64,000 bases of DNA from positions 162 to 64,161 of the forward strand of contig JAGVOW010000016.1 in NCBI GenBank assembly GCA_020052515.1, in the 5' to 3' direction. The DNA comes from Brevinematales bacterium (lineage in GTDB: Bacteria; Spirochaetota; Brevinematia; Brevinematales; JAOACQ01). Shown here piece after piece: positions 26,839 to 54,003 of this stretch (positions are counted from its first letter, which is position 1; each line of letters begins with the position of its first letter). The notes below the pieces were generated by a model. It did not search any database and was not told the DNA's origin. It saw only the letters and a list, made by a program, of their open reading frames with translations. A program made the position numbers and the translations under genes.

Positions 26839-28551
26839 GTGATATTGAATGGTTCCAGGATTTTAATAGAAAGCCTCAAAAAAGAAGGGGTAGACACGAT
26901 TTTTGGCTATCCCGGCGGTGTTGTTATTCCTTTATTTGATGAATTATACGACGAAAAAGAAATAAATTTAATCCATGTGCGCCATGAGCAGGGAGCGGCT
27001 CACGCGGCGGATGGCTATGCCCGGGCTTCGGGAAAAGTGGGAGTGTGCCTGGCTACCAGCGGTCCCGGCGCGACCAATCTGGTGACAGGAATCGCTACCG
27101 CCTATATGGATTCTATTCCTATGGTTGCCCTGACCGGACAGGTTGTCAGCTCTATGATCGGCAGTGACGCTTTTCAGGAAGCGGATATTACAGGCATTAC
27201 CCGGCCGATTACCAAGCACAATTATTTAGTGAAAGACACAAAGGATTTAGCGAGAATTGTTAAAGAGGCTTTTTATGTCGCCAGTACCGGCAGGCCCGGC
27301 CCGGTTTTGATTGACCTTCCAAAGGATGTGCTGACCGGAAAAGCGGAGTTTCTCTATCCGGAAAAGGTAGAAATGCGGAGTTACAATCCGAAAGTCAAGC
27401 CCCATCAAGGGCAAATTAAAAAGGCTTTAGGGCTGATAGCGGAAGCAAAAAAGCCTATTATTTATTTCGGGGGCGGGGTTATTTTGAGCGGCGCTGCTAA
27501 AGAATTAATTGAATTGGTTCGTAAAACCGGCATTCCCTGCACCAGCACAATGATGGGATTGGGCGGCTATCCAGCGGATTTAGCCGATCCGCTTTATCTC
27601 GGAATGCTGGGCATGCATGGAACTGTATTTGCCAATTACGCTGTCCACCATGCCGATTTGATTATCGCCATCGGGGCCAGGTTTGACGACCGGGTTACCG
27701 GCAGGATTGATGAGTTTGCCCATAACGCGCGCATTATTCACATAGATATTGACCCTACTTCGATCAGTAAGAATGTGGTGGTGGATGTTCCGATTGTAGG
27801 TGATGTAAAAGAAGTTTTGAAAGAAATGTTGAAAGATATTAAGCTCGTCAGCATCAAGCCTTGGCTGGATCAGGTACAGGAATGGAAAAAGGCCAATGCT
27901 ATGGCCTATCAGAAAAGTGAAACGGAAATTAAACCGCAGTATGTGATTGAAAAGCTTTCTGAAATTACAAAGGGTGACGCGATCATCGCGACGGAAGTCG
28001 GCCAGCATCAGATGTGGACGGCGCAGTATTATCAGTTTAAAAACCCCCGGAAATGGCTTTCTTCAGGAGGCCTGGGCACCATGGGATTTGGGTTGCCCGC
28101 TTCGATTGGGGCAAAGGTCGCGATGAAGGACGAGCTGGTTATAACTGTCGCGGGAGATGGGTCTATTCAGATGAATATTCAGGAATTAGCTACCGCGATC
28201 AGCCATGATATTAATATCAAGGTGATTATTCTGGACAATGCTTATCTTGGAATGGTGCGGCAATGGCAGGAGCTCTTTTTTAAGAAGAGATATTCAGCGG
28301 TGCTTCTGGAAAAGCATGTAAACAATAAGTCAACCGGGAAATATTATCCCGATTTTGTCAAGATCGCGGAGGCTTATGGCTTTTGGGGCAAAAGGATTTC
28401 AAAGCCTGAGGAAGTCGAGAAAGCGATTCGGGAAATGATCGCTTATCCAGGCCCCGCGCTTCTGGATGTATTAATCTGTAAAGAAGAGAACGTTTTTCCG
28501 ATGGTGCCGGCCGGAGCAAATTTGACCCAGATGATCGGGGGTTTAGCATGA
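26839..28551 (+). CDS. ilvB: Acetolactate synthase (AHAS) large subunit
   Basis: 'FGYPGG', 'RHEQGAAHAADGYARASGK' and ThDP motif 'GDGSIQMNIQEL'. It overlaps the small subunit gene by 4 nt. Confidence 0.9.
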   Translation: MILNGSRILIESLKKEGVDTIFGYPGGVVIPLFDELYDEKEINLIHVRHEQGAAHAADGYARASGKVGVCLATSGPGATNLVTGIATAYMDSIPMVALTGQVVSSMIGSDAFQEADITGITRPITKHNYLVKDTKDLARIVKEAFYVASTGRPGPVLIDLPKDVLTGKAEFLYPEKVEMRSYNPKVKPHQGQIKKALGLIAEAKKPIIYFGGGVILSGAAKELIELVRKTGIPCTSTMMGLGGYPADLADPLYLGMLGMHGTVFANYAVHHADLIIAIGARFDDRVTGRIDEFAHNARIIHIDIDPTSISKNVVVDVPIVGDVKEVLKEMLKDIKLVSIKPWLDQVQEWKKANAMAYQKSETEIKPQYVIEKLSEITKGDAIIATEVGQHQMWTAQYYQFKNPRKWLSSGGLGTMGFGLPASIGAKVAMKDELVITVAGDGSIQMNIQELATAISHDINIKVIILDNAYLGMVRQWQELFFKKRYSAVLLEKHVNNKSTGKYYPDFVKIAEAYGFWGKRISKPEEVEKAIREMIAYPGPALLDVLICKEENVFPMVPAGANLTQMIGGLA

Positions 28552-29021
28552 ATTATACTTTATCAGTGTTGGTAGAAAACCACTTTGGTGTTTTGGCCAG
28601 AGTTTCCGGCCTTTTTTCCGCGCGGGGGTTTAACATTTCGAGTCTGGCTGTGGCTGAAACGGAGGACCCAACTGTTTCGGTTATGACCATAGTTGTGGAT
28701 GGGGATGAGAGAATATTGGATCAGGTCAAGAAGCAGTTGAATAAACTCATTGATGTGATTAAGGTAAAGGATTTGTCGGAACAGGACCATCTTTCTAGAG
28801 AGCTAGCGCTTGTGAAAGTCGGTGTGGACAGTCAAAAACGCCGCGAAATCATAGAAATCGCGGATGTCTTTAAAGGCAGGGTGGTTGACATTTCTCATGA
28901 GACGATTACGCTGGAATTGACAGGAGATACCAAGAAGATTGACGCTGTTGTTGATCTGCTCAAAGCTTATGGGATCAAAGAGATGGCGAGAACCGGAAAA
29001 GTAGCCCTGGTTCGGGGATAA
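28548..29021 (+). CDS. ilvN: Acetolactate synthase small (regulatory) subunit
   Basis: ACT domain 'LSVLVENHFGVLARVSGLFSARGFNISSLAV'. Confidence 0.9.
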   Translation: MNYTLSVLVENHFGVLARVSGLFSARGFNISSLAVAETEDPTVSVMTIVVDGDERILDQVKKQLNKLIDVIKVKDLSEQDHLSRELALVKVGVDSQKRREIIEIADVFKGRVVDISHETITLELTGDTKKIDAVVDLLKAYGIKEMARTGKVALVRG

Positions 29022-29347
29022 TGATGGCGAGCCTGGCTTATAAATTGGAGGAGCGTTTTACTTATTCGGATTATGTCTTAATTGTATCCCCTATTGATGT
29101 TGTTTTTTCAGAAGAAGACGTGGTTCAGCCGGATATTGTGGTGGTCTGCGATTCGAAAATTGTAAAAGAAAGAGGGGTTTTTGGCGCTCCGACGGTTGTG
29201 ATCGAGGTGCTTTCTTCTTCGACAGCAGAAAAGGATAAGCAGGGGAAGTATTCCGAAGCGGATATTTTCTCGGAAAAGCAGAGAATGGATTTAAAATCGC
29301 TGGAAATTGCCCTGAATTTAAAGCAGGTTTTTGAAATTGAGATGTAA
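29021..29347 (+). pseudogene. Miniaturised Uma2 (DUF820) family endonuclease remnant
   Basis: The core 'VVQPDIVVVCDSKIV...GAPTVVIEVLSSSTAEKDKQGKY' is the Uma2 signature. At 108 aa the ORF is well short of my recollection of the family's full length, and flanking segments appear to be missing. Confidence 0.5.
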
Positions 29348-42313: not shown

Positions 42314-43718
42314 TTAGTGATTATGATGCCGAAGGGGGGCATTGTTTAATTGATTTTTCATAAAAGACTTTATTCCATTCTTATCCTCATTACGAATATT
42401 ATTCCTGAATTTTACTTCGATTGGTATTCTATGTTGTCCCGTGGTCAATACAAAATCTACTTCTGGTTCATTATTTCTTTCAGGGAAATAAGATATATCT
42501 AATCCATGGATGGATGATAGCATAGACCCCACAATGCTTTCAGCTAAGTGACCGGCAATGGCATCTTCCGCCTCATTGCTATTGTTGCCGGTTAAAGAAA
42601 TATTTTCCTGCAGCCAGATGGCCCTCAAGCTATGATCGGCAAGGCATATTTTTGAATTACTTTTTTTCTTTTTCAGCCGGATTTCCAGCGGTTTGATTAA
42701 AATTATTAAAAGAGTATCATTTAGAAATTTTGGATAGCTGGTAATCCTTTGGGGCCCAATATTAGCGTGCAGGGTGCCTCGAAGTTCTTCCAGCAATGTT
42801 CTGATTCCGGGAGCCTGTCCCGCATATCTGCATCCAAGCCTGAATAAATTCTTCCAGTAAAGCAGAATCTCGCTTCCGGCCTTTTTCACCCAACCGTAGA
42901 TCATGCAGAATTACCCGGTGGATAATATTTTCATTTAACTGATCGGCTATCTGGGGCCATTGGGCGGTTTTGATATGAGCTATTGGATAGGCCCCTAGAT
43001 CGGAGAAGAGTTGAAAAACAGTATCCCGATATTCACGATTAGCTATCCCGTATTCCGCTAAACCTCTCCAGAATTCCTTTTTAAACAAGATAGTTAAACC
43101 ATTGTCCGGCAAATAAGGATCGGGGGATTTCATGCCTCTGATAGCGCCTATTTCAGTCAGTGAAAGAGGCGCGGCATTGATAGTCGAAATCCTTCCCGCC
43201 AGGCTGTCTCGCCCTTTCTCAATTCGAAGGGCGGAACTTCCGGTTACTACCGCTTTGACGCCCGTTGTGTCCAGCATTAGTTTCAACTGCGGTGCCCAGT
43301 TTTCTATATTTTGAATCTCATCCAGAAAAAAATAAACCTTTTCTCCTTTCCGTATTATGGCATTAACCCGTTTTTTGATAACTTCCTTTTCATACCATGT
43401 CAATAAACCCAAAATTGGGTTTTCCATTTTGAGTATTTCGTTGATTTCATCAAACTGAACCCAGAAAATATTAAGCGGCGGAATCCCGGAGTCTAAAAGA
43501 TCGATGATGAGTTGTTTAAGGCTGGTCGTTTTTCCGATCTGGCGACTTCCACGTACAACCACAGCGGGCGCCAATCCGGAATCCAGCCTTTTTTTAATTT
43601 GAGTTACCAGATGTCTTCTGAATGGAGGCGCCAGAGGCCTGGCAGAAGAATCCTCCCACCATTCATTCATACGCCGAAGCTGTTCTTTTAATATTTCGTC
43701 AATCATATTACCCTTCAC
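42314..43718 (-). pseudogene. AAA+ ATPase with DUF4143 C-terminal domain, split by a +1 frameshift
   Basis: ORF 42762..43718 carries Walker A 'GSRQIGKTT'. ORF 42314..42904 carries 'EPEVDFVLTTGQHRIPIEVKF'. The frames join at ...DSALLEE|LFRLGCRYAGQ across a 3-nt T run (plus-strand aaa, 42846-42848). Confidence 0.7.
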
Positions 43719-43790: not shown

Positions 43791-45539
43791 TTACTCCACT
43801 CCATTATCAATTTTTAAATTCCCTTTCGAAGGCTCATTACCGTAAAAATCAAAAAAATCTTTCATGGTGTGAAGGTGTTTGATGTTGTGATTTAAGTAAT
43901 CAGGCAAAGAAAATAGCTGGCCTTTGTCGTTTAAAAAATCGTGTATGTGCCGGATAGTTATTTTTTCTTTCTTGCAGAAACCCTCAATGGATTTCATTAA
44001 TTGGGGGTCAAAAACCAGAAAAGTGTGCGGTTCTATTTCGATAATGTGATTCTTAAAATGGTCTTTAATTTGAAAGGAATAATGAGCGTTAACCTGAATA
44101 ATCTGGTAAGAATCCATCTTATCCAGAGAAAGGCTGTTAATAAGGCTTTCTATCCCTTCAGCCACGTTTTGCGGCAAGGCATGCTTTGAGTGAGCTTTCA
44201 AAAACTCCAGTACTTCTTCTTTTTTTATCCCATAAGCAAAAGAGCGGTAAATAGATTCTTTTGTAATCTTGAATAAAGAGACAGTTTGTATAGTCAGAGG
44301 TTCGGCAATAATGGCCAGCTTGAACAATATTTCCGGTTTCAAATAGGGCTCTACTATTACTTCATAATTTGCTTCCACAATGAAATTATCCTCAGAAAAG
44401 TGTCCGCCAAAATCCACGTGGTTTAAAAGGGAAGCATGCGGTTCATTCATAATAATAGCGTCTTTTGCTATGGAAATTGTGCCCGGGCTGCCTCTCTGCA
44501 GAGTAGCGATATTTTCTACCTCCAGGCTTTTGACAAAAAGGACAAAACGAAGTTCTTCCTGTTGAAGCAGCAGTTTCAGGCTTTTTGCTTCATTTTTTAG
44601 GGCAATATAAATTTCATTATTCAGATAATAGAAAAAGAGTTCCCGCAAAGGGATGCATTTTTTGTCGACATAGGAGCGGAGGCCCAGAATTTTTAAAGTC
44701 ATAAAAGCGCTTTTGCGGAAATCAAACTTGTCCATAAAATCATATAGGAAAATAATGAAGAGCTGTTCGTTAATAGATAGTTTTAAAATAGAATCTAAGA
44801 GAGATTTATTTAAAATGATCCGGTTGTTAAACTTCTGAAAAAAGCCAAAACGGCAGAGTTTTTTGATAAGTGTTTCCAGCTCATTCTTTTCTCCAAAATC
44901 GGCAAAAAATTCCAGCATCTTTGCGAGGTCAATTTTATGAATTTCGTTGGTCTCAGAGCTTCGCGGAGCGAAATTGATCACATAAGAAATAAATCCGGCA
45001 ATCAAAGGGATATAATGGGCCGTGAGCAGGTCTTTCCCGGAGATTCCGCAATAGGTCGCAGGATGATTGTTCAGTATGCGTTCGGCTTCTGCTGACGGGT
45101 TAATATTTCTTAGAAATATAGGAGGCGAGAAGAAAAAATTATACCGCTTGAGCCGTTCGTATTTAAAAAGAAGAAATTTTTTAAATAGTGAATTCAGAGA
45201 AGCCGACAATTCATCAGGATGAAAATGAAAAATAGTGGCGATGATTTTTAAAGTGGATTCAATATTATCATAAACAATCCAGCCAAACCCGTTTTTCATA
45301 ATATAAAGGAGCAATTTTTCTGCGTTCGAAAGAGACCCATAAAGTTCGAGGGCATTCTTTGAAATAAAGTCCGAAACCTGGTTCAATCTTTTGCGGTTTT
45401 CCTCGCCGTCATAAGACATTTCCATGTCTGAATGGAAGAAATAGTCATAAATTTTTTTTACCAATTGCGGCTCTTCCTGTATCATCCAGTCCGTTACGGT
45501 AACATTGCTCAATTGGCTGGTATCTTTTCCTTCTAACAT
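43791..45539 (-). CDS. XPB-associated protein with p52/Tfb2-like regions
   Basis: 582 aa, 11 nt downstream of the XPB gene. 'FIVEANYEVIVEPYLKPEILFKLAIIAEPLTIQTVSLFKITKESIYRSFAYGIKKEEVLEFLKAHSKHALPQNV' parallels human p52 '[69 protein letters not shown]..LPPTI' (recalled from memory). 'LIKKLCRFGFFQKFNNRIILNKSL' parallels p52 'LQHLREFGLVFQRK..YYPTRLA'. Confidence 0.45.
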   Translation of the reverse strand: MLEGKDTSQLSNVTVTDWMIQEEPQLVKKIYDYFFHSDMEMSYDGEENRKRLNQVSDFISKNALELYGSLSNAEKLLLYIMKNGFGWIVYDNIESTLKIIATIFHFHPDELSASLNSLFKKFLLFKYERLKRYNFFFSPPIFLRNINPSAEAERILNNHPATYCGISGKDLLTAHYIPLIAGFISYVINFAPRSSETNEIHKIDLAKMLEFFADFGEKNELETLIKKLCRFGFFQKFNNRIILNKSLLDSILKLSINEQLFIIFLYDFMDKFDFRKSAFMTLKILGLRSYVDKKCIPLRELFFYYLNNEIYIALKNEAKSLKLLLQQEELRFVLFVKSLEVENIATLQRGSPGTISIAKDAIIMNEPHASLLNHVDFGGHFSEDNFIVEANYEVIVEPYLKPEILFKLAIIAEPLTIQTVSLFKITKESIYRSFAYGIKKEEVLEFLKAHSKHALPQNVAEGIESLINSLSLDKMDSYQIIQVNAHYSFQIKDHFKNHIIEIEPHTFLVFDPQLMKSIEGFCKKEKITIRHIHDFLNDKGQLFSLPDYLNHNIKHLHTMKDFFDFYGNEPSKGNLKIDNGVE

Positions 45540-45550
45540 AAAAGCCGCCT

Positions 45551-47248
45551 TTAATCCGAAGATTTTAGTTCTAGATCCGGTATGGACAGAGCCTCTTCCT
45601 TTTCCGGGTAATGAATAATTGAATAGTGGTAACCCTGCTCTAACAGGAACATCTGTCTTCTTCTGGCAAATTCTTCTTCCAGGGTATCTCTGGATACCAG
45701 TGAATAGAAATAAGCCTTGCAGGACTCCGGCCTTAATATTCTTCCAAGCCTCTGGGCTTCTTCCTGTCGGGACCCAAATATGCCGGAGACCTGTATTGCC
45801 ACATCCGCGATCGGCAGGTCAATAGAGAAATTTCCCACTCTGGAAACAATCAATGCTGGTATTTTATTATTCCGAAAATCGCGGTACATTATTTCTCTTT
45901 CATGGTTCGGCGTTTCCCCTGTAATCAATGGAATACCGAAAATCCGGGAAATTTCCTGAAGCTGGAAGATGTAATGGCCAATAATCAGAATGTGATTTTC
46001 TTTGTGGAAATGGAGCAATTTTTCCAGAATTTTCAGTTTATTAGGATTTTCTGAGGCGATCCGGAATTTCTGTCTCTGGGAGGAACGCAGGTATTCAAAA
46101 GAATTGCCTTCATTGAGGGGTATTTTTATTTCATAACAATAGGCTGTCGCTATCCAGCCTTCTTTTTCGAGGGCCTTCCAGGAATATTCGTAAATTTTCG
46201 GGCCGATCAGCGTAAAAACTTCTGTTTCCAGATTGTCTTCCCTGACCAGTGTGGCTGTTAAACCAAGTCTTCGCTTGCCTTGAATGAAAGTGGTCATGCG
46301 GAAAATAGGCGCCGGTAAAATATGCACTTCATCATAAATAATAAGGCCCCAGTTTTTCTCAGTAAATATGCCGATGTTGCGCATTTCCTCGCTTCCGGCA
46401 TTTTTATGAATCAACATATTATAAGTTGTGATGGTTACCGGCTTGATGATTTTCTTCTGCGCGGTGTATTCGCCTACATCATCCGGGTTTAAGGAAGTTT
46501 TGTCTAAGATTTCTCTTGTCCATTGACGGATCGCTTCGACGCTGGTAGTAATAATGAGGGTATATTCTTTTATCTCATTCATAATACCGATGCCTACGAT
46601 GGTTTTGCCCGCGCCGCAAGGAAGTACTACAACACCGCTTCCCTCTTTCCATCTCATGAAGTTTTCAATGGCTTCTTTCTGATAATACCTGAGAGAAAAC
46701 CCTTTCTCTTCTAAAGAGTTTTCTCTCAAGTGTAGTTCCAGTCTATTTCCGCTGTCAAAACCAGCTATGTCCTTGACGGGTATCAGGTGCTTGATTAGCT
46801 CGTTCTTGATACTGCCGCGATTTTGTTTATCGATGATCAGAGTGTTTTCCGGGCCTTTCTTTACTATATACTGCTGAATCAGGCCTTCCACTTTTTCGAA
46901 AAGTTTTTCATCTTTTATTTCAATTAGAATATTTTGAGGGTCTTTGCTTTTTAATACCACTTTTCCATAGATAGAATAATGCCGTTCAATGTATTCAAGA
47001 ACATTCTTTGGTATATCAAACTTTTTATAATTTTCCAGACAGGAAATAATGCCATCCAATGGAATGCCGTTCGCGGCTGAATTCCAGAGAGAAATGGGAG
47101 TAATACGGTAAAAATGGATGTGCTCCGGTGTTTTAGAAAGCTCAGAAAATCCTATCAGCCTTTTTCTCACTTCTTCAAATTGAGGATGATGAGTGTCCAA
47201 AAGGATTGTTTTGTCAGATTGCACAGCAATAACTTTGTTTTCTTCCAT
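45551..47248 (-). CDS. XPB/Ssl2/Rad25-type SF2 DNA helicase-translocase
   Basis: N-terminal XPB-type domain ('PEHIHFYRITPISLWNSAANGIPLDGIISCLENY...SIYGKVVL'), Walker A 'LPCGAGKT', 'IYDEVHILPA' and RED motif 'TATLVREDN'. Confidence 0.85.
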   Translation of the reverse strand: MEENKVIAVQSDKTILLDTHHPQFEEVRKRLIGFSELSKTPEHIHFYRITPISLWNSAANGIPLDGIISCLENYKKFDIPKNVLEYIERHYSIYGKVVLKSKDPQNILIEIKDEKLFEKVEGLIQQYIVKKGPENTLIIDKQNRGSIKNELIKHLIPVKDIAGFDSGNRLELHLRENSLEEKGFSLRYYQKEAIENFMRWKEGSGVVVLPCGAGKTIVGIGIMNEIKEYTLIITTSVEAIRQWTREILDKTSLNPDDVGEYTAQKKIIKPVTITTYNMLIHKNAGSEEMRNIGIFTEKNWGLIIYDEVHILPAPIFRMTTFIQGKRRLGLTATLVREDNLETEVFTLIGPKIYEYSWKALEKEGWIATAYCYEIKIPLNEGNSFEYLRSSQRQKFRIASENPNKLKILEKLLHFHKENHILIIGHYIFQLQEISRIFGIPLITGETPNHEREIMYRDFRNNKIPALIVSRVGNFSIDLPIADVAIQVSGIFGSRQEEAQRLGRILRPESCKAYFYSLVSRDTLEEEFARRRQMFLLEQGYHYSIIHYPEKEEALSIPDLELKSSD

Positions 47249-48292: not shown

Positions 48293-49954
48293 TTAATCCC
48301 CTATCATTTCTGTGATGCTTCCTCCCGGCGGGATCATCGGCAAAACATTGTGCCTTGAGTCAATGGGGACATTGATTAAAGCGGGGCCTTTAAAGTCGAG
48401 CGCTTTTTTAAAGCGGCGTTTAAAATGGCTGTTTTGCTTGACATCAAAACTTTTTATACCGAAACCCTCCCCGATTTTCGTGAAGTCTGGTTGAGAAATA
48501 AATTCAGAGGCAATATACTTCTTTTCGTAAAACAATTCCTGCTGCTGGCGGACCAGGCCTAAATGGCCGTTATTCAGGATAATGATTTTGACATTCAGCT
48601 GGTGGTCTGCCAGAGTCGCCAATTCTTGAATATTCATCAAGATAGAACCATCTCCGCTGATGCAGATAATTTGCCTGTCAGGCCAGGCCAGCGCGGCCCC
48701 AATTGCCGCGGGAAGGCCAAACCCCATGGTTCCCAATCCCCCAGAAGTCAAAAATTGACGGGGCCTTTTAAAGGGAAAGGCCTGGGCTGTCCACATCTGG
48801 TGCTGTCCGACATCGGTCGTAATGATCGCATCCGGCTGGATCAGCTGGCTGATTAATTGAATCATATTTAATGGATGGAAGACCTCATTCTGCTTTGGTG
48901 CCCATGGTGGAAATTGTTTTTTCAGGCAGGCAATCTCCGAGAGCCATTTCTCCCTTTTATTTTCTTCTATTAGAGGAAAAATCCCGTTTAAAGCCAGATT
49001 CAGATCTGCCGCTATGAAGCTGTTTGTTCTCTTGATTTTATCAATCTCTGAATGATCAATATCAATGTGTAAAATATCGGCATGCCGGCAGAATTTCTCG
49101 GCATTTCCAGTCGCCCGGTCGTCAAAACGAACTCCCAGGGCAATCAATAAATCCGCTTTGTCCAGTAAGTAGTTGGTATAGCGGGCACCGTGCATTCCCA
49201 GCATTCCGATGTACAAAGGGTCATCCATCGGTACGCACCCAATGCCCATCAATGTTGAAGCGATCGGCAAGGAGTTTTTTTTGGCCAATTCCAGTATTTT
49301 TTTATGAGTTTTGGAATGGACAGCTCCTCCGCCAATCAGTATCAAAGGCTTTTGCGCCTTATTGATGAGCAACGCGGCTTTCTCCTTATCTTTCTGGTTT
49401 ATTTCTTTTTCCATGGCTTCTATAGGAGGTTTTGGCCATTCTTTAAATTCAATCATTTCGGCCTGGACGCTCTTTGGAATATCTATCAGAATTGGCCCTG
49501 GCCTTCCCTCCATTGCAATCCGGAATGCCGCCGGGATTATATCAAACAATTTTTTTGCGCTCTGGACGAAAAAATTATGCTTGGTAATAGGCAAAGATAT
49601 CCCATAAGTGTCTACTTCCTGAAACGCGTCAGTGCCAATGAGTGCTGTAGAAACCTGTCCTGTGATGGCTATAATGGGAATCGAATCCAATTTCGCGTCC
49701 GCTATGGCAGTCAGTAAATTTGTAACGCCTGGGCCGGATGTGGCAAAGCAGACTGCCGGTTTTCCAGTTGACCTTGCTATCCCTTGTGCGATAAAGCCTG
49801 CGCCCTGTTCATGCCGGGTAAGAATGTGCCTGATCTTGCTATGAAACAGGGCATCGTAAAGCGGCAGATTTTGTCCGCCGGGAATTCCGGCAATCAGTTG
49901 AATCCCCTGTCTTTCCAGAAGGCGGATAGTGATTTCCGCGCCTGTCATTTTCAT
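48293..49954 (-). CDS. Second AHAS large-subunit paralog (IlvG-like), no adjacent small subunit
   Basis: 'RHEQGAGFIAQGIARSTGKPAVCFATSGPGVTNL', 'ITGQVSTALIGTDAFQEVDTYGISLPITKHNFFVQS' (close to my memory of E. coli IlvG) and 'GDGSILMNIQEL'. AGGAGG RBS. Confidence 0.85.
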   Translation of the reverse strand: MKMTGAEITIRLLERQGIQLIAGIPGGQNLPLYDALFHSKIRHILTRHEQGAGFIAQGIARSTGKPAVCFATSGPGVTNLLTAIADAKLDSIPIIAITGQVSTALIGTDAFQEVDTYGISLPITKHNFFVQSAKKLFDIIPAAFRIAMEGRPGPILIDIPKSVQAEMIEFKEWPKPPIEAMEKEINQKDKEKAALLINKAQKPLILIGGGAVHSKTHKKILELAKKNSLPIASTLMGIGCVPMDDPLYIGMLGMHGARYTNYLLDKADLLIALGVRFDDRATGNAEKFCRHADILHIDIDHSEIDKIKRTNSFIAADLNLALNGIFPLIEENKREKWLSEIACLKKQFPPWAPKQNEVFHPLNMIQLISQLIQPDAIITTDVGQHQMWTAQAFPFKRPRQFLTSGGLGTMGFGLPAAIGAALAWPDRQIICISGDGSILMNIQELATLADHQLNVKIIILNNGHLGLVRQQQELFYEKKYIASEFISQPDFTKIGEGFGIKSFDVKQNSHFKRRFKKALDFKGPALINVPIDSRHNVLPMIPPGGSITEMIGD

Positions 49955-49970
49955 AAATTTCCTCCTATGA

Positions 49971-50008
49971 GAAATAAAAAACCCCTGCCGGTTAAAACCG
50001 GCAGGGGT
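49971..50008 (-). terminator. Intrinsic terminator between leader ORF and ilvG-like gene (candidate attenuator)
   Basis: The minus strand reads CCCCTGCCGG-ttttaa-CCGGCAGGGG followed by TTTTTTATTT. The stem ends ~27 nt before the ilvG-like ATG. Confidence 0.7.
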
Positions 50009-50032
50009 AGATTTATTCCATTATAATATGGA

Positions 50033-50116
50033 TCATCCCAGCGGTAAAAACCGATAGACAAAAGAAAGTGTCACCACGACAAGTACGAGTACGATGATAG
50101 TTGAAAAAGGACCCAT
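50033..50116 (-). CDS. 27-aa Ile/Val/Leu-rich leader peptide candidate
   Basis: GAGGAA RBS 7 nt upstream of the ATG. The peptide is MGPFSTIIVLVLVVVTLSFVYRFLPLG: 13 of 27 residues are I/V/L, nine of them consecutive. Confidence 0.45.
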   Translation of the reverse strand: MGPFSTIIVLVLVVVTLSFVYRFLPLG

Positions 50117-50132
50117 ATAAAGTTTCCTCACA

Positions 50133-50160
50133 AAGGCGACAATAATTATTGTCGCCTTTT
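50133..50160. repeat. 28-bp perfect palindrome (copy 3)
   Basis: aaaGGCGACAATAATTATTGTCGCCttt. It ends 16 nt upstream of the leader-ORF ATG on the minus strand. Confidence 0.95.
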
Positions 50161-50183
50161 TTACTTATTCATAAAACGAAAAA

Positions 50184-50217
50184 AGCCCCCGCTGGTTTTA
50201 CCAGCGGGGGCTTTTTA
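50184..50217. terminator. Strong bidirectional-looking intrinsic terminator
   Basis: AGCCCCCGCTGG-tttta-CCAGCGGGGGCT flanked by an A-run and a T-run. Confidence 0.7.
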
Positions 50218-50326
50218 ATAAAAACAACCCATCCCTACGGCATAAACCTTTTGACAAATTCAAGCTTCACCACTAGCGCCACATTTAAAGGGATGGAGAA
50301 TTTAATCATAAAAATTCCTTTTTATT
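50184..50326 (-). ncRNA. Candidate ~110-140 nt structured transcript (sRNA or upstream leader), unassigned family
   Basis: It is bounded by a consensus promoter and the 50184-50217 terminator. An internal 8-bp helix CCATCCCT (50229-50236)/AGGGATGG (50289-50296) can be extended by GUGGC:GCCGU. It also contains a 24-codon ORF (50235..50309, MIKFSIPLNVALVVKLEFVKRFMP). Confidence 0.35.
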
Positions 50327-50332
50327 CACATT

Positions 50333-50361
50333 ATTATAGAATAGTTGTGGATTGATGTCAA
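50333..50361 (-). promoter_or_regulatory. Perfect consensus sigma70 promoter
   Basis: The minus strand reads TTGACA-N17-TATAAT, preceded by a T-tract. Confidence 0.6.
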
Positions 50362-50534
50362 AAAAAAACTTGTCTTAGGCGCGGTTAATAAAACGCGCCT
50401 ATACTCCAATCTCAGTGTACCCCGGCAGCAAAGGAATTTTAAGTTTTTAATAGTGGGGGCAGCTCCCTGCCCGACTATTTTTCATTGAAATGCGCAAAAG
50501 TCATGACTATTCGGCATTAGACTGCAAATAAGTC

Positions 50535-50780
50535 TTGACTTCTTTTTTAACTCCTTATTCTTCGAATATCGGCAGGGCCATCCTGAAAGAACCCAAGCTT
50601 TATTTTTTTGACAATGCTCTTGTTCAGGGTGATGAGGGCGTACGTTTTGAAAACCTGGTTGCTTTATGTCTCTATAAGTCTGTTTTATACCGAAGAGACC
50701 AGCTGGCAGAAGAAATAGAATTGAAATATATCCGGACTAAGGATAAAAAAGAGATTGATTTTACTCTTGTAAAACAAGGA
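50535..50780 (+). pseudogene. C-terminal fragment of a second DUF4143 ATPase gene
   Basis: 'KEPKLYFFDNALV...GVRFENLVA...KYIRTKDKKEIDFTLV' is the DUF4143 tail only. There is no ATPase domain upstream, and the frame runs into the rsmA 3' end. Confidence 0.5.
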
Positions 50781-50787
50781 ACTACGG

Positions 50788-51591
50788 CTATAAATCCCAA
50801 AACAACCGCTCCCACTTTTCTACTTCCACTTCCTCCGGCCGGATAGAAAGCGGAATGCCTGATTTTGCCAATATTTCCGGCGAAATTCCAGCCTGCTTTA
50901 AGTTATTGGACAGCGTTTTTCGTCTCGATTGAAAAGCTTTCCTTAAAAAGGAATTGAATTCCTCCTGAGGAAGATCGCAGAGCTTCTTTTTTAACTTCAC
51001 AACCATAGAATCAATAGAAGGCGCCGGGAAAAAGCATTTTCTTCCCACAGAGAAAAGAGGCGTTATTTCCAGATAATAATGAGACAAAATGCTCATGACT
51101 CCAAAATTTTCTTCTCCCGGCATAGCCTTCATTCTTTGTACAAAATCGCTCTGGAGCATTACAATTCCTTCATCAAAAATTTTTTCTTCAATAAATCTTT
51201 TGACCGCCTCGCCGGAAATGGAATAGGGAAGATTGGAAACAAAAAACAAATTTTCTTCTTTCAGTTGAGAAAAGTCATAAGAAAGAAAGTCGCCATGGAT
51301 CATGGTGAGATGGGGATGGGAAAGAAAATCTTTCAGAACGACATAAATGCCCCTGTCAATCTCAATGGAATAGGTCTTATGATTTTCTATTAAAAGCATG
51401 GTCAAAGCGCCCAAACCACTGCCGACCTCAAAAAGGGCTGCGTCCTTTGAAATGTTAGCAATGATTTTTTCAGCGGTATTTCTGTCAATCAAGTAATTCT
51501 GGCCCCTTTTTTTCGAGAGATGCAGATGGTTTTGCTCCAATACCTTCGACACAAAATGGAGAGAGAAGGGATTGTATTCCAGATTTTTCAT
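50788..51591 (-). CDS. rsmA: 16S rRNA (adenine1518/1519-N6)-dimethyltransferase
   Basis: 'KKRGQNYLID' and 'EVGSGLGALT'. Confidence 0.9.
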   Translation of the reverse strand: MKNLEYNPFSLHFVSKVLEQNHLHLSKKRGQNYLIDRNTAEKIIANISKDAALFEVGSGLGALTMLLIENHKTYSIEIDRGIYVVLKDFLSHPHLTMIHGDFLSYDFSQLKEENLFFVSNLPYSISGEAVKRFIEEKIFDEGIVMLQSDFVQRMKAMPGEENFGVMSILSHYYLEITPLFSVGRKCFFPAPSIDSMVVKLKKKLCDLPQEEFNSFLRKAFQSRRKTLSNNLKQAGISPEILAKSGIPLSIRPEEVEVEKWERLFWDL

Positions 51592-52644: not shown

Positions 52645-54003
52645 TTAGTCAAATGAGGGTAGCTGAAAAAAACTTTTTAAATTTGGAGAGGGGTAATAAT
52701 ATTTATTTCTGCCCACTTTTTTAACAAGTAAAAAACCCTTTTCTCCCAAAATTTTGAGGTCTTTGATCGCCGTTAATTTTGATGTCCTGTAAATATTTTT
52801 GTGGATGGTCGGTGTTGTTTTATCCTCAGGATGTTCGATGAAATGTTCCAATAATTCTATCTGCCTCTGGTTTAGCCCAAAACGGACCGCTAAATCTTCT
52901 TTTTTCGCGCGTTTTTCCTCATTCTTTTGCAAATAATTTAAAAAATGCTCAATAGAAGCCTGAATTTTCAGCACATTATAATTGATAAAATAGGTCAGGT
53001 CATGATCATCCTGTTCGCTATAGAGATAAGCCTTTTCATATTGCGCTCTGGATTTTAATAATAGCGACGAAAATGACAAATAAAAAAATACCCAATAGCC
53101 CTTTTTTATTAAATACCAATAGAATAAAATCCGGGCCAGCCTTCCGTTTCCGTCACAGAAGGGATGAAGATACCCAATCCAGAAATGAATCATAATTGCT
53201 TTTATTAAAGGATGAATAAATGGCTCATTATCCTCATCGTTGGCGAAACGAATGAGGCGGTCCATCTCTTTTTCAACAAACTCAGCCTTCGGAGGGATAA
53301 AATAGATTATTTCGCTATCTTTGCTCACAACAATGTCATCATGATCGTTTCGGAATCTGCCGATATCTTTTTGGTCCAATGTGTTTTTGGTTAAAATTTC
53401 ATGGATTTCGAAAAGAAGACTTTTTGACAGTTTTTTTTCTTTGTATTCTTCATCAATTAATTTCATCGCCTGATAATTGTTTAATATCATTTGCTCTGAT
53501 TTATCTCGGGGTTTTCTGCCGGTTCGGATCATTTCTTTTGCCATTTTTCTCGTGGTGTTTGCGCCTTCCAGCTGTGATGACGCTATAGATTCTTCCAGGA
53601 GGCCTTTAGCTCTGAATTTGTTTTTTATTTTTTCATTCGGCTTTTCAAAGCCCAGTTCTAACAAATCTTTAAATTTTCCGGCGAAATTTAAGTCGATAAA
53701 ATGGAGAAATTTTTCCATAGAGGGAAGTTTTATCCAGGTAAAAAACTCTTGATTTTCATTTTTAATGGGGGTTTTTATAGATACCGCTTTCCGGTATTCT
53801 TTGACAGCAATCCAGAATTCTTCTTTATGCTTTATCTCATCCGGCATTTTATATTTGAGTTTGTCCCAATAGAGGTATTCCGGTTCAAAAGCTAAAATTT
53901 GGTAATTTTTATATGTCTGAGCAATTCTCAACTGAATATAAGTTTCGAGTTTAGATTCACGGTATTTTTTAAGATTTGGTTTTTCAATTTGAACTATTTT
54001 CAT
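52645..54003 (-). CDS. Fic-family protein with intramolecular inhibitory motif (class II-like) and C-terminal wHTH
   Basis: Active site 'HPFCDGNGRLAR' (HxFx[DE]GNGRxxR). There is an upstream 'SSQLEG' [ST]xxxE[GN] motif. The C-terminus reads 'LKILGEKGFLLVKKVGRNKYY'. Confidence 0.85.
   Translation of the reverse strand: MKIVQIEKPNLKKYRESKLETYIQLRIAQTYKNYQILAFEPEYLYWDKLKYKMPDEIKHKEEFWIAVKEYRKAVSIKTPIKNENQEFFTWIKLPSMEKFLHFIDLNFAGKFKDLLELGFEKPNEKIKNKFRAKGLLEESIASSQLEGANTTRKMAKEMIRTGRKPRDKSEQMILNNYQAMKLIDEEYKEKKLSKSLLFEIHEILTKNTLDQKDIGRFRNDHDDIVVSKDSEIIYFIPPKAEFVEKEMDRLIRFANDEDNEPFIHPLIKAIMIHFWIGYLHPFCDGNGRLARILFYWYLIKKGYWVFFYLSFSSLLLKSRAQYEKAYLYSEQDDHDLTYFINYNVLKIQASIEHFLNYLQKNEEKRAKKEDLAVRFGLNQRQIELLEHFIEHPEDKTTPTIHKNIYRTSKLTAIKDLKILGEKGFLLVKKVGRNKYYYPSPNLKSFFQLPSFD

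Follow-up and report, generated by a model that had tools for sequence, protein, structure and literature searches.

The 64-kb stretch of Brevinematales DNA analyzed here (contig JAGVOW010000016.1; hereafter the window) carries a gene for the large subunit of an IlvB-type acetohydroxyacid synthase (AHAS), and the region in front of this gene (50361-49955, minus strand) is most probably a regulatory leader that combines one strong promoter with two ribosome-mediated attenuators of the ivbL type arranged in series. Each of the two units would consist of a Shine-Dalgarno sequence, a short open reading frame (ORF) enriched in codons for Ile, Val, and Leu, a G-rich block (region 2) at its 3' end, and a strong intrinsic terminator (the 3:4 helix). 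By homology with ivbL-ilvBN of Escherichia coli, a plentiful supply of charged Ile-, Val-, and Leu-tRNA would allow the translating ribosome to reach the stop codon and cover region 2, upon which the terminator would form and transcription would end; when these charged tRNAs are scarce, the ribosome would stall on Ile/Val/Leu codons, region 2 would pair with the 5' arm of the terminator, and RNA polymerase would read through. Transcription of the AHAS gene would require passage of both terminators and the effects of the two units would therefore be expected to multiply, which would make repression tight and the response steep. Translation of both ORFs and multiplication of the effects of the units are presumed in this scheme, and the response of the units to amino acids is predicted by analogy with ivbL. 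To judge from its sequence, it is likely that the system works as an attenuator at present or did so until recently. A first-pass annotation of the same DNA had proposed attenuation for the downstream unit, and that proposal is supported by the homologous AHAS-linked leaders, the covariance model matches, and the conserved position of region 2 described below. What it overlooked is the promoter and a second, better-formed leader-terminator unit lying upstream of the first.

Anatomy of the leader and of the AHAS gene

The promoter (TTGACA-17-TATAAT, 50333-50361) agrees with the sigma-70 consensus at 12 of 12 positions and is the only perfect match between 47000 and 51500. Judging from its position, the whole leader transcript probably starts near 50326. 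This promoter and the leader features that follow are all on the minus strand. A Shine-Dalgarno-like sequence (AAAAGGAA, 50315-50322) precedes leader ORF1 (MIKFSIPLNVALVVKLEFVKRFMP, 50235-50309), whose 24 codons include nine for Ile, Leu, or Val, an LVV stretch among them. The 3' end of ORF1 reads AGG UUU AUG CCG UAG GGA U, which is nearly identical to CGG UUU ACG CCG UAG GGA U in the leader of another AHAS locus (L187) and close to GCG CCG UAG GGA C in ivbL. A segment of ORF1 spanning codons 5-7 (CCAUCCCU, 50289-50296; region 1, the putative protector strand) forms an 8-bp pairing with 50236-50229 in minimum free energy (MFE) folds. Region 2 of this unit (GCCGUAGGGAUGGGUUGUU, 50223-50241) spans the ORF1 stop codon and has two alternative pairing partners, region 1 and the 5' arm of terminator T1. 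T1 itself (AAAAAGCCCCCGCUGG-UAAA-CCAGCGGGGGCUUUUU, 50174-50216; -26.4 kcal/mol) is a helix of 17 pairs (50216-50179) followed by a U-run, and it carries a compensatory C-G to U-A change with respect to the leader family.

For the downstream unit, the elements recorded in the first pass are all present, in place and on the minus strand: GAGGAA as the Shine-Dalgarno sequence (50124-50129), the 27-codon leader ORF2 (MGPFSTIIVLVLVVVTLSFVYRFLPLG, 50033-50116; homologous to the leaders of locus L084 described below), nine consecutive Ile/Val/Leu codons (AUC AUC GUA CUC GUA CUU GUC GUG GUG, 50072-50098) that are the putative regulatory codons, a spacer of 24-25 nt between ORF2 and the terminator, a hairpin with U6, AGGAGG as the Shine-Dalgarno sequence of the AHAS gene (49961-49966), and the AHAS ATG, which is located 21 nt past the terminator U-run. 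The hairpin (T2; ACCCCUGCCGGU-UUUA-ACCGGCAGGGGU and then U6, 49976-50008; -25.0 kcal/mol) had been described as having 10 bp; both it and its U6 (49981-49976) stand, whereas the helix (50008-49981) is counted here as 12 bp, 9 of them G-C. The run of Ile/Val/Leu codons in ORF2 is the longest in the six frames of the window, where only four runs of at least seven such codons occur; the chance of a run of this kind is approximately 2e-6 per codon position, with about 0.003 expected in the 830-nt intergenic region. Region 2 of this unit (UAUCGGUUUUUACCGCUGGGA, 50036-50056) has a position that is conserved across the leader family, and it is separated from T2 by a small AU-rich spacer hairpin (UCCAU-AUUAUA-AUGGA, 50017-50032) with equivalents in leader L084b and in ivbL and with a -10-like TATAAT inside it.

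Between T1 and ORF2, no promoter matching the consensus at 9 or more of 12 positions was found and ORF2 would therefore depend on read-through of T1. One transcript with two attenuators in series would be the simplest reading of this arrangement. The two units are 60-64% identical and each is the nearest relative of the other. Two further sequence features were noted in this region. Hairpin H2 (AAAGGCGACAAUAAUUAUUGUCGCCUUU, 50132-50159), a perfect 12-bp GGCGACAAUAAUUAUUGUCGCC situated between T1 and the Shine-Dalgarno sequence of ORF2, does not occur in the tandem leader of L084; as its T-run lies on the plus-strand side, it is scored as a terminator on that strand only. A promoter-like sequence (TTTACC-17-TATAAT, 10 of 12 positions; 50020-50048, minus strand) is embedded in the 3' end of ORF2 and the spacer, and a transcript initiated from it would start approximately 5 nt before T2. 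Its TATTATA core is also present in the L084b and L187 spacers, and the site may be a pause signal, an internal promoter, or merely hairpin sequence.

The gene that follows (48293-49954, minus strand) encodes an IlvB-type (AHAS I-like) acetolactate synthase large subunit of 553 amino acids. The protein matches TIGR00118 from end to end with 684 bits (cut-off of 538) and contains all three thiamine diphosphate domains, indicating a full-length large subunit of the biosynthetic type. Its best NCBIfam model is PRK08155, with 841 bits as compared with 664 bits for the IlvG model and, among the GTDB matches listed, it is 52-54% identical to the products of enterobacterial genes preceded by ivbL versus 44% to the ilvL-linked IlvG of Buttiauxella. 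These enterobacterial relatives are identified as ilvB because the ivbL leader (MTTSMMTSTLLKTAQPAAVVVVRVVVVVGNAP) precedes all of them. By sequence, the enzyme is thus more IlvB-like (AHAS I) than IlvG-like, and the designation "IlvG-like" given to it earlier is replaced here. An identity of the leader with the ilvL-ilvG (AHAS II) attenuator was rejected on the same identities and scores. No relative of the protein above 64% identity was found among 5.8 billion proteins, the closest being 63-64% identical; the matches listed from a GTDB genome scan with the protein omitted these closest relatives, yet supplied a diverse set of leaders.

A gene for an ACT-domain small subunit was not found directly after the AHAS gene, in agreement with the first-pass annotation; the next gene is flgF/flgG-like (48200-47355). 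The AHAS large subunit may use the canonical IlvN encoded elsewhere in the window (157 amino acids, 28548-29021) or, alternatively, run without valine feedback on transcriptional control alone. A 108-residue ORF between ilvN and ilvC was considered as the missing small subunit and rejected, as it is a fragment of a Uma2-family protein (a putative restriction endonuclease) without an ACT domain; this fragment (29021-29347, plus strand) is wedged into the canonical ilvBN-ilvC cluster. The canonical ilvB (26839) has a promoter only upstream. No T-box, leader-model match, or leader ORF was found there, which upholds the earlier description of a plain promoter without a leader. The flgF/flgG-like gene encodes a rod protein and lies on the minus strand, 92 nt beyond the stop codon of the AHAS gene, and it is the only flagellar gene in that neighborhood; no clear terminator was evident between the two genes, and they may be co-transcribed.

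Homologous leaders and family membership

The 450 nt upstream of 80 AHAS relatives were scanned for small Ile/Leu/Val-rich ORFs combined with terminators. Leader-plus-terminator units were recovered from proteobacteria (the delta-proteobacterial metagenome-assembled genome (MAG) L001, Enterobacteria L002-5, L013, and L014, Zoogloea L008, and the Rheinheimera-type gammaproteobacteria L061 and L079), from spirochaetes (Spirochaetia L006, Leptospira L009, Treponema L010, and Spirochaetes MAG L017), and from Verrucomicrobiota (L007), Binatia (L012), and Fibrobacteres (L035). Units homologous to those of the window, comprising a leader ORF, a GCCG-UAG-GGG block at the stop codon, a spacer hairpin, and a CCCC(U)GCCGG terminator, precede genes for AHAS proteins with 46-64% identity to the window enzyme in at least six phyla (L084, L187, L085, L082, L001, L006-L009, L012, L017, L035, and enterobacterial ivbL). 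The leader ORF is kept in relatives and, in the homologues found, is linked to AHAS genes there rather than occurring as a free membrane peptide, an outcome that favors the attenuator proposed in the first pass. Other AHAS relatives are preceded by T-boxes (L018, L021, L054, L055, L066, and L081).

Four of the closest AHAS relatives (58-64% identity) carry a leader-plus-terminator unit. The most similar arrangement is that of L084 (AHAS of 553 amino acids, 64% identity, with an adjoining transposase), which encodes tandem leaders, MNPGISSLGLLLVVVVLSFVFTLMPRRK and (MRAIKNKI)MNSFLTLNVNVVVVVVVVLLAGYRFKLTD, each with a CCCC(U)GCCGG terminator, in the order promoter, leader, terminator, leader, terminator, AHAS, and with 28 nt between the units. 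The remaining three encode the leaders MKSFGIQRAAGFISVTALSVVVVVVCICSYRFTP (L187; AHAS 58.5% identical), MTSIKARKNLVSLPQAVKSLVTVVVVLYACRLSPHG (L085; 64%), and MRTLSTRLDLISILVAVVVVVLLTVKFAP (L082, a Spirochaetes MAG; 63%). An ACT small subunit of 90-107 amino acids is encoded in L081, L082, and L085 and none is encoded in L084, such that the closest relative of the leader shares both the tandem arrangement and the lack of a small subunit with the window. The tandem copies in the window and in L084 may nonetheless have arisen independently, because the two window copies are each other's nearest relatives (60-64%). Additionally, in L084 the second terminator is followed, ahead of the AHAS gene, by an extra 21-codon ORF (MIKYRDYFQERFNKKEVGDNL, 2420-2504) with its own GAGGAG; the stop codon of this ORF overlaps the AHAS ATG, and the two may be translationally coupled. 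A counterpart is absent from the window. In L086 (1725-4165), a gene for an AHAS that is 64% identical to the window enzyme directly follows an alpha-acetolactate decarboxylase gene and has no leader; given this adjacency, some members of the clade may serve acetoin formation rather than amino acid synthesis.

Membership of the two units in this family was evaluated in several ways. Alignment of 14 units brings the (G)CCG-NN-GGG block, the spacing of approximately 35 nt, and the terminator arms into register. A covariance model (R1) constructed from 12 leaders outside the window, including ivbL sequences, has only two full-length matches in the window (128 kb searched), namely unit 1 (53.4 bits, E 6e-11) and unit 2 (48.9 bits, E 7e-10). 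When applied to 100 metagenomic control loci with identical terminator arms, R1 scored at most 43.4 bits, and the top-scoring controls were ordinary terminators at gene ends. Alignments from which the terminators had been removed were also compared with shuffled sequences, resulting in z scores of 8.7 for ORF1 and L187, 4.7 for ORF1 and ivbL, 4.2 for ORF2 and L084b, 4.6 for ORF2 and ivbL, and 5.5 (over 44 nt) for ORF1 and ORF2. Further, the terminator helix covaries among 14 members, with 7 of 12 pairs changed on both sides and a value that none of 500 shuffles reached. The antiterminator pairs (GCCG:CGGY and GGG:CCC) are formed in 88.8% of cells when in register and in 20-66% when slid. The first-pass annotation had looked to covarying stems for confirmation, and this expectation holds for the terminator but not for the antiterminator, the columns of which are too conserved to covary. 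Collectively, these comparisons support the assignment of both units, on sequence, to the ivbL-type family of leader-peptide attenuators.

It should be noted that the terminator by itself is not diagnostic of this family. Its arms, CCCCTGCCGG...CCGGCAGGGG, form a generic palindromic terminator with more than 120 matches in metagenomes, only one of which (L187) adjoined an AHAS gene, and they were rejected as a marker; loci from this set provided the negative controls for R1. Searches of the window against Rfam at the gathering threshold returned nothing except one tRNA. A T-box leader was likewise rejected: no T-box model matched in the window, and none appeared in 49800-50900 even at E values up to 10. 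Sub-threshold Rfam matches (to His, Thr, Leu, and Phe leaders and to assorted small RNAs) occurred on both strands, were driven by terminator hairpins, and were discarded.

A broader and more tentative proposal, which is held to be possible but on balance doubtful, is that the element acts as a functional attenuator of two stages and moves together with the AHAS large-subunit gene, forming a portable cassette that regulates itself, and that the ivbL-type leader represents an ancient RNA/peptide family. If so, the cassette would consist of promoter, leader, terminator, leader, terminator, and an ilvB-like gene with no small subunit, both here and in the transposase-adjoining L084. The ancient family would then span Proteobacteria, Spirochaetota, Verrucomicrobiota, Fibrobacteres, and Binatia, with an almost invariant core (GCCG-UAG-GGG...CCCC(U)GCCGG) that has no Rfam match at the gathering threshold. 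Apart from this proposal, IlvB-type AHAS genes from at least six phyla are preceded by leaders that match the E. coli ivbL design at nearly every nucleotide, which makes this a broad family, and no Rfam model recognized it here.

The predicted switch, alternative explanations, and known systems

In 13 of 13 leaders, the 18-nt segment that pairs best with the 5' arm and loop of the terminator is located at the stop codon or up to approximately 40 nt upstream of it, and in most cases overlaps the stop. This is a location that a terminating ribosome would cover and that a ribosome stalled upstream would not. In unit 2, the segment in question is ACCGCUGGG, which the first-pass annotation had flagged as a weak antiterminator candidate; its duplex with CCCUGCCGGU has an energy of -11.1 kcal/mol, as compared with -25 kcal/mol for the terminator, and extension via CGGUU:AACCG brings this to -19.2 kcal/mol. 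The extended three-helix antiterminator pairs CGGUU (50053-50049) with AACCG (49993-49989), ACCG with CGGU, and GGG with CCC of the T2 5' arm, encloses the spacer hairpin, and reaches -20.9 kcal/mol as a local fold. The YRF codons (UAYCGGUUY) that supply CGGUU are conserved in the window, L084b, and L187. For unit 1, the local antiterminator fold amounts to -17.1 kcal/mol. Stalling was simulated by masking the ribosome footprint while folding the RNA. In the absence of a ribosome, or when one is placed past codon 14 of ORF1, CCAUCCCU (50296-50289) pairs with AGGGAUGG (50236-50229) and the terminator arm is free, whereas with a ribosome at codons 6-12 (Ile6, Leu8, Val10, and Leu12) region 2 (50223-50240) pairs with the T1 5' arm. 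In these models, unit 1 behaves as a textbook 1:2 / 2:3 / 3:4 switch.

Several observations weigh against a tandem attenuator. The antiterminator core of unit 2 (-11.1 kcal/mol) is the weakest among the 13 leaders (-13.8 to -25.1 kcal/mol in the others), and 52% of dinucleotide-shuffled leaders pair as well; for the extended antiterminator this fraction is 5.8%, such that it also does not exceed shuffled sequences. The switch of unit 2 was ambiguous in the stall simulations, and its protector pairings are weak or alternative (AUCAUC:GAUGAU, identified by eye, and the start-codon region with the post-stop region). A leader-only profile (R2, 42 positions) yielded non-significant scores of 8.8 and 5.7 bits (E 0.24 and 2.7) for the two units; these matches rank first and third in 128 kb, and the profile carries too little information. 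Covariation of the antiterminator is likewise unsupported, with 170 of 500 shuffles equaling the observed value, as its columns are almost invariant. Moreover, the Ile/Leu/Val content of ORF1 is moderate (9 of 24 codons), and the promoter-like site at 50048-50020 and hairpin H2 are left unaccounted for by a tandem-attenuator model. Finally, mutation of leader codons in ilvB of Streptomyces coelicolor left regulation unchanged, as cited in PMC1262725, and to the extent of that citation family resemblance is therefore no guarantee of classical attenuation.

Regarding the energetic arguments, the same shuffle test applied to the established ivbL attenuator shows 44% of shuffled sequences pairing as well, and several other family members fail it too; the test is insensitive and for this reason is not counted against the model. 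An MFE "gain" test of switching was abandoned, since ivbL and ilvL did not pass it either: in the MFE state, region 1 keeps region 2 occupied. Thermodynamics alone is uninformative, and support for the attenuator comes from comparison with relatives. The first-pass annotation had made its claim dependent on a structure that competes with the terminator, and the outcome is mixed in that the position of such a structure is conserved in all leaders while for unit 2 the simulated switch is ambiguous and the energy falls within the range of shuffles.

The weaknesses of unit 2 would also be expected if this unit were a relic that no longer switches, with T2 serving as a near-constitutive terminator that silences a recently acquired, partnerless AHAS and with regulation exerted by unit 1 alone. 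Its antiterminator energy and its ambiguous simulation, next to the clean result for unit 1, are consistent with such decay, as are a stop codon shifted by two codons relative to L187 and ORF1 (UAG to CUG), a T2 loop that, unlike that of L187, no longer complements GGUUU, and the location of an AHAS gene without a small subunit in a variable region beside gene fragments. However, ORF2 is intact, with a good Shine-Dalgarno sequence and the longest Ile/Val/Leu run in the window; the extended three-helix antiterminator attains approximately -20 kcal/mol and draws on YRF codons that are also conserved in the L084b and L187 leaders; the AHAS ORF is complete, with a match to TIGR00118 over the entire length; and failure of the shuffle test is shared by established attenuators such as ivbL. 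A decayed unit 2 is regarded as the main alternative, although an unlikely one.

A still less probable explanation is that only one unit regulates the AHAS gene, the promoter, ORF1, and T1 being an independent small RNA or small-protein gene derived from an attenuator and ORF2 having a weak promoter of its own. Terminated riboswitch and leader transcripts that act in trans as small RNAs are known elsewhere, and unit 1 has features suited to such a role, including a very strong T1 (17 pairs, -26 kcal/mol) flanked on either side by A- and U-runs, a distance of 64 nt between T1 and ORF2 with H2 as an extra hairpin, and an ORF1 that is only moderately Ile/Leu/Val-rich. Against this, the interval between T1 and ORF2 lacks a promoter of at least 9 of 12 positions, unit 1 has a full 1:2 / 2:3 / 3:4 architecture that switches in simulation, and L084 has the same order of elements with 28 nt between its units. 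It is more improbable yet, to the point of being barely credible, that ORF2, together with its terminator, is an independent gene for a small hydrophobic membrane peptide or a type I toxin and adjoins the AHAS gene by coincidence. The ORF2 peptide is essentially one hydrophobic helix, hairpins flank ORF2 on both sides, and H2 has its T-run on the plus strand, as would be expected for the terminator of an antisense RNA. Nevertheless, every homologue found is directly upstream of an AHAS gene, nucleotide motifs (GCCG-UAG-GGG and UAYCGGUUY) are conserved while the peptides differ, no plus-strand promoter of at least 9 of 12 positions opposes ORF2, and the peptide has no Pfam match, leading to rejection of a type I toxin-antitoxin identity. 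Neither the ORF1 nor the ORF2 peptide was found as a recorded protein in 15 billion sequences.

The tandem attenuator resembles ivbL-ilvBN most closely. Both systems have a Shine-Dalgarno sequence, a Val/Leu(/Ile) codon run, a (G)CCG-UAG-GGA block at the stop codon, a spacer hairpin, a terminator of the form CCCC(N)GCCGG...CCGG(N)GGGG with a U-run, and an IlvB-type AHAS, and both window units align to ivbL. In contrast to the single unit of ivbL, the window has two units in series, includes Ile codons, has no ilvN after the gene, and derives from a Brevinematales spirochaete; in addition, the antiterminator of unit 2 is much weaker than that of ivbL (-11 versus -20 kcal/mol). The E. coli ilvB gene is also under the control of cyclic AMP-CRP. 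The ilvL-ilvGMEDA system shares an Ile/Val/Leu-rich leader peptide and the same mechanism (L056, MKALLRVISLVVISVVVIIIPPCGAALGERKA, is an example) but has an antiterminator of different sequence, located 22-40 nt before the stop codon. T-boxes and riboswitches are also known to occur in tandem. The enterobacterial ivbL attenuator responds to Val and Leu (PMC11187965).

Outside of Proteobacteria, ilv leader peptides have been described in Actinobacteria, including those of Corynebacterium ilvBNC, Mycobacterium, and Streptomyces (PMC1262725; PMC10272879; PMC11857589), and ilv-leu of Staphylococcus aureus has a Leu-rich attenuator peptide (PMC5794164). In layout, these are similar to the window in that a short Ile/Leu/Val-rich upstream ORF and a terminator precede ilvB; they differ in being single units before complete ilvBNC or ilv-leu operons. 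The first-pass annotation had argued for novelty from the rarity of such leaders outside of Proteobacteria, and this argument was overstated in light of the cases documented in Actinobacteria (PMC1262725) and S. aureus (PMC5794164). In the literature searched, the only tandem attenuator found was that of Salmonella mgtCBR, where two sensing and termination modules occupy one 5' leader and read-through needs both (PMC3641672). The two ORFs of mgtCBR are not copies of one another and respond to distinct signals (Pro-tRNA and ATP), whereas the window units are paralogous and both Ile/Leu/Val-rich. The mechanism proposed here is thus textbook leader-peptide attenuation, and it is the tandem arrangement that is new. 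Two paralogous copies in series would constitute a natural example of multiplicative, steeper amino acid sensing by ribosome-mediated attenuators. The units are compact, at approximately 130-150 nt each, and could serve in amino acid-responsive circuits, a use to which ivbL has already been put as a part (PMC11187965).

Genomic setting of the AHAS locus

The IlvC protein encoded in the window shares 86-88% identity with proteins from Brevinematales MAGs and genomes (Spirochaetota). Related contigs have kept lpxD-rsmA, with cvfB-gyrA-HAD-pheS-pheT after rsmA; relative to these contigs, the window has approximately 10 kb extra between rsmA and gyrA, which places the AHAS locus in a variable region. 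This additional stretch contains a DUF4143 ATPase fragment, the leaders and the AHAS gene, the lone flgF-like gene, an XPB helicase and its partner, and a split AAA_14/DUF4143 gene. Horizontal acquisition of the AHAS locus is plausible on sequence comparison, as suggested by the variable rsmA-gyrA interval and by the contrast between the AHAS, whose relatives reach no more than 64% identity, and IlvC, with relatives at 86-88%. Relatives of RsmA are also only 52-58% identical, however, which counts against inferring acquisition of the AHAS from low identity, and the GC content of the locus (46%) is similar to that of the canonical ilv genes and is not indicative of horizontal acquisition.

Other features of this part of the window include a 103-codon ORF on the plus strand (50535-50846) that overlaps the 3' end of rsmA and resembles the C-terminal portion of an AAA_14/DUF4143 ATPase, with a KLYFFDNAL motif. 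This ORF probably represents a gene fragment and the trace of a rearrangement beside the AHAS cassette. On the minus strand at 42314-43718, an AAA_14 ORF (318 amino acids) and a DUF4143 ORF (196 amino acids) overlap by approximately 140 nt, and the pair looks frameshifted or split because the two domains usually form one protein. Within the same variable region, also on the minus strand (43791-47248), a bacterial XPB/Rad25-type DNA repair helicase (565 amino acids, 744 bits to NF045503) is followed by a 582-residue protein in which only Helicase_C_3 was recognized. Lastly, a gene for a 452-residue Fic-domain protein (52645-54003, minus strand) lies directly upstream of lpxD-rsmA, a slot that is occupied by a DUF4384 gene in contig L207.

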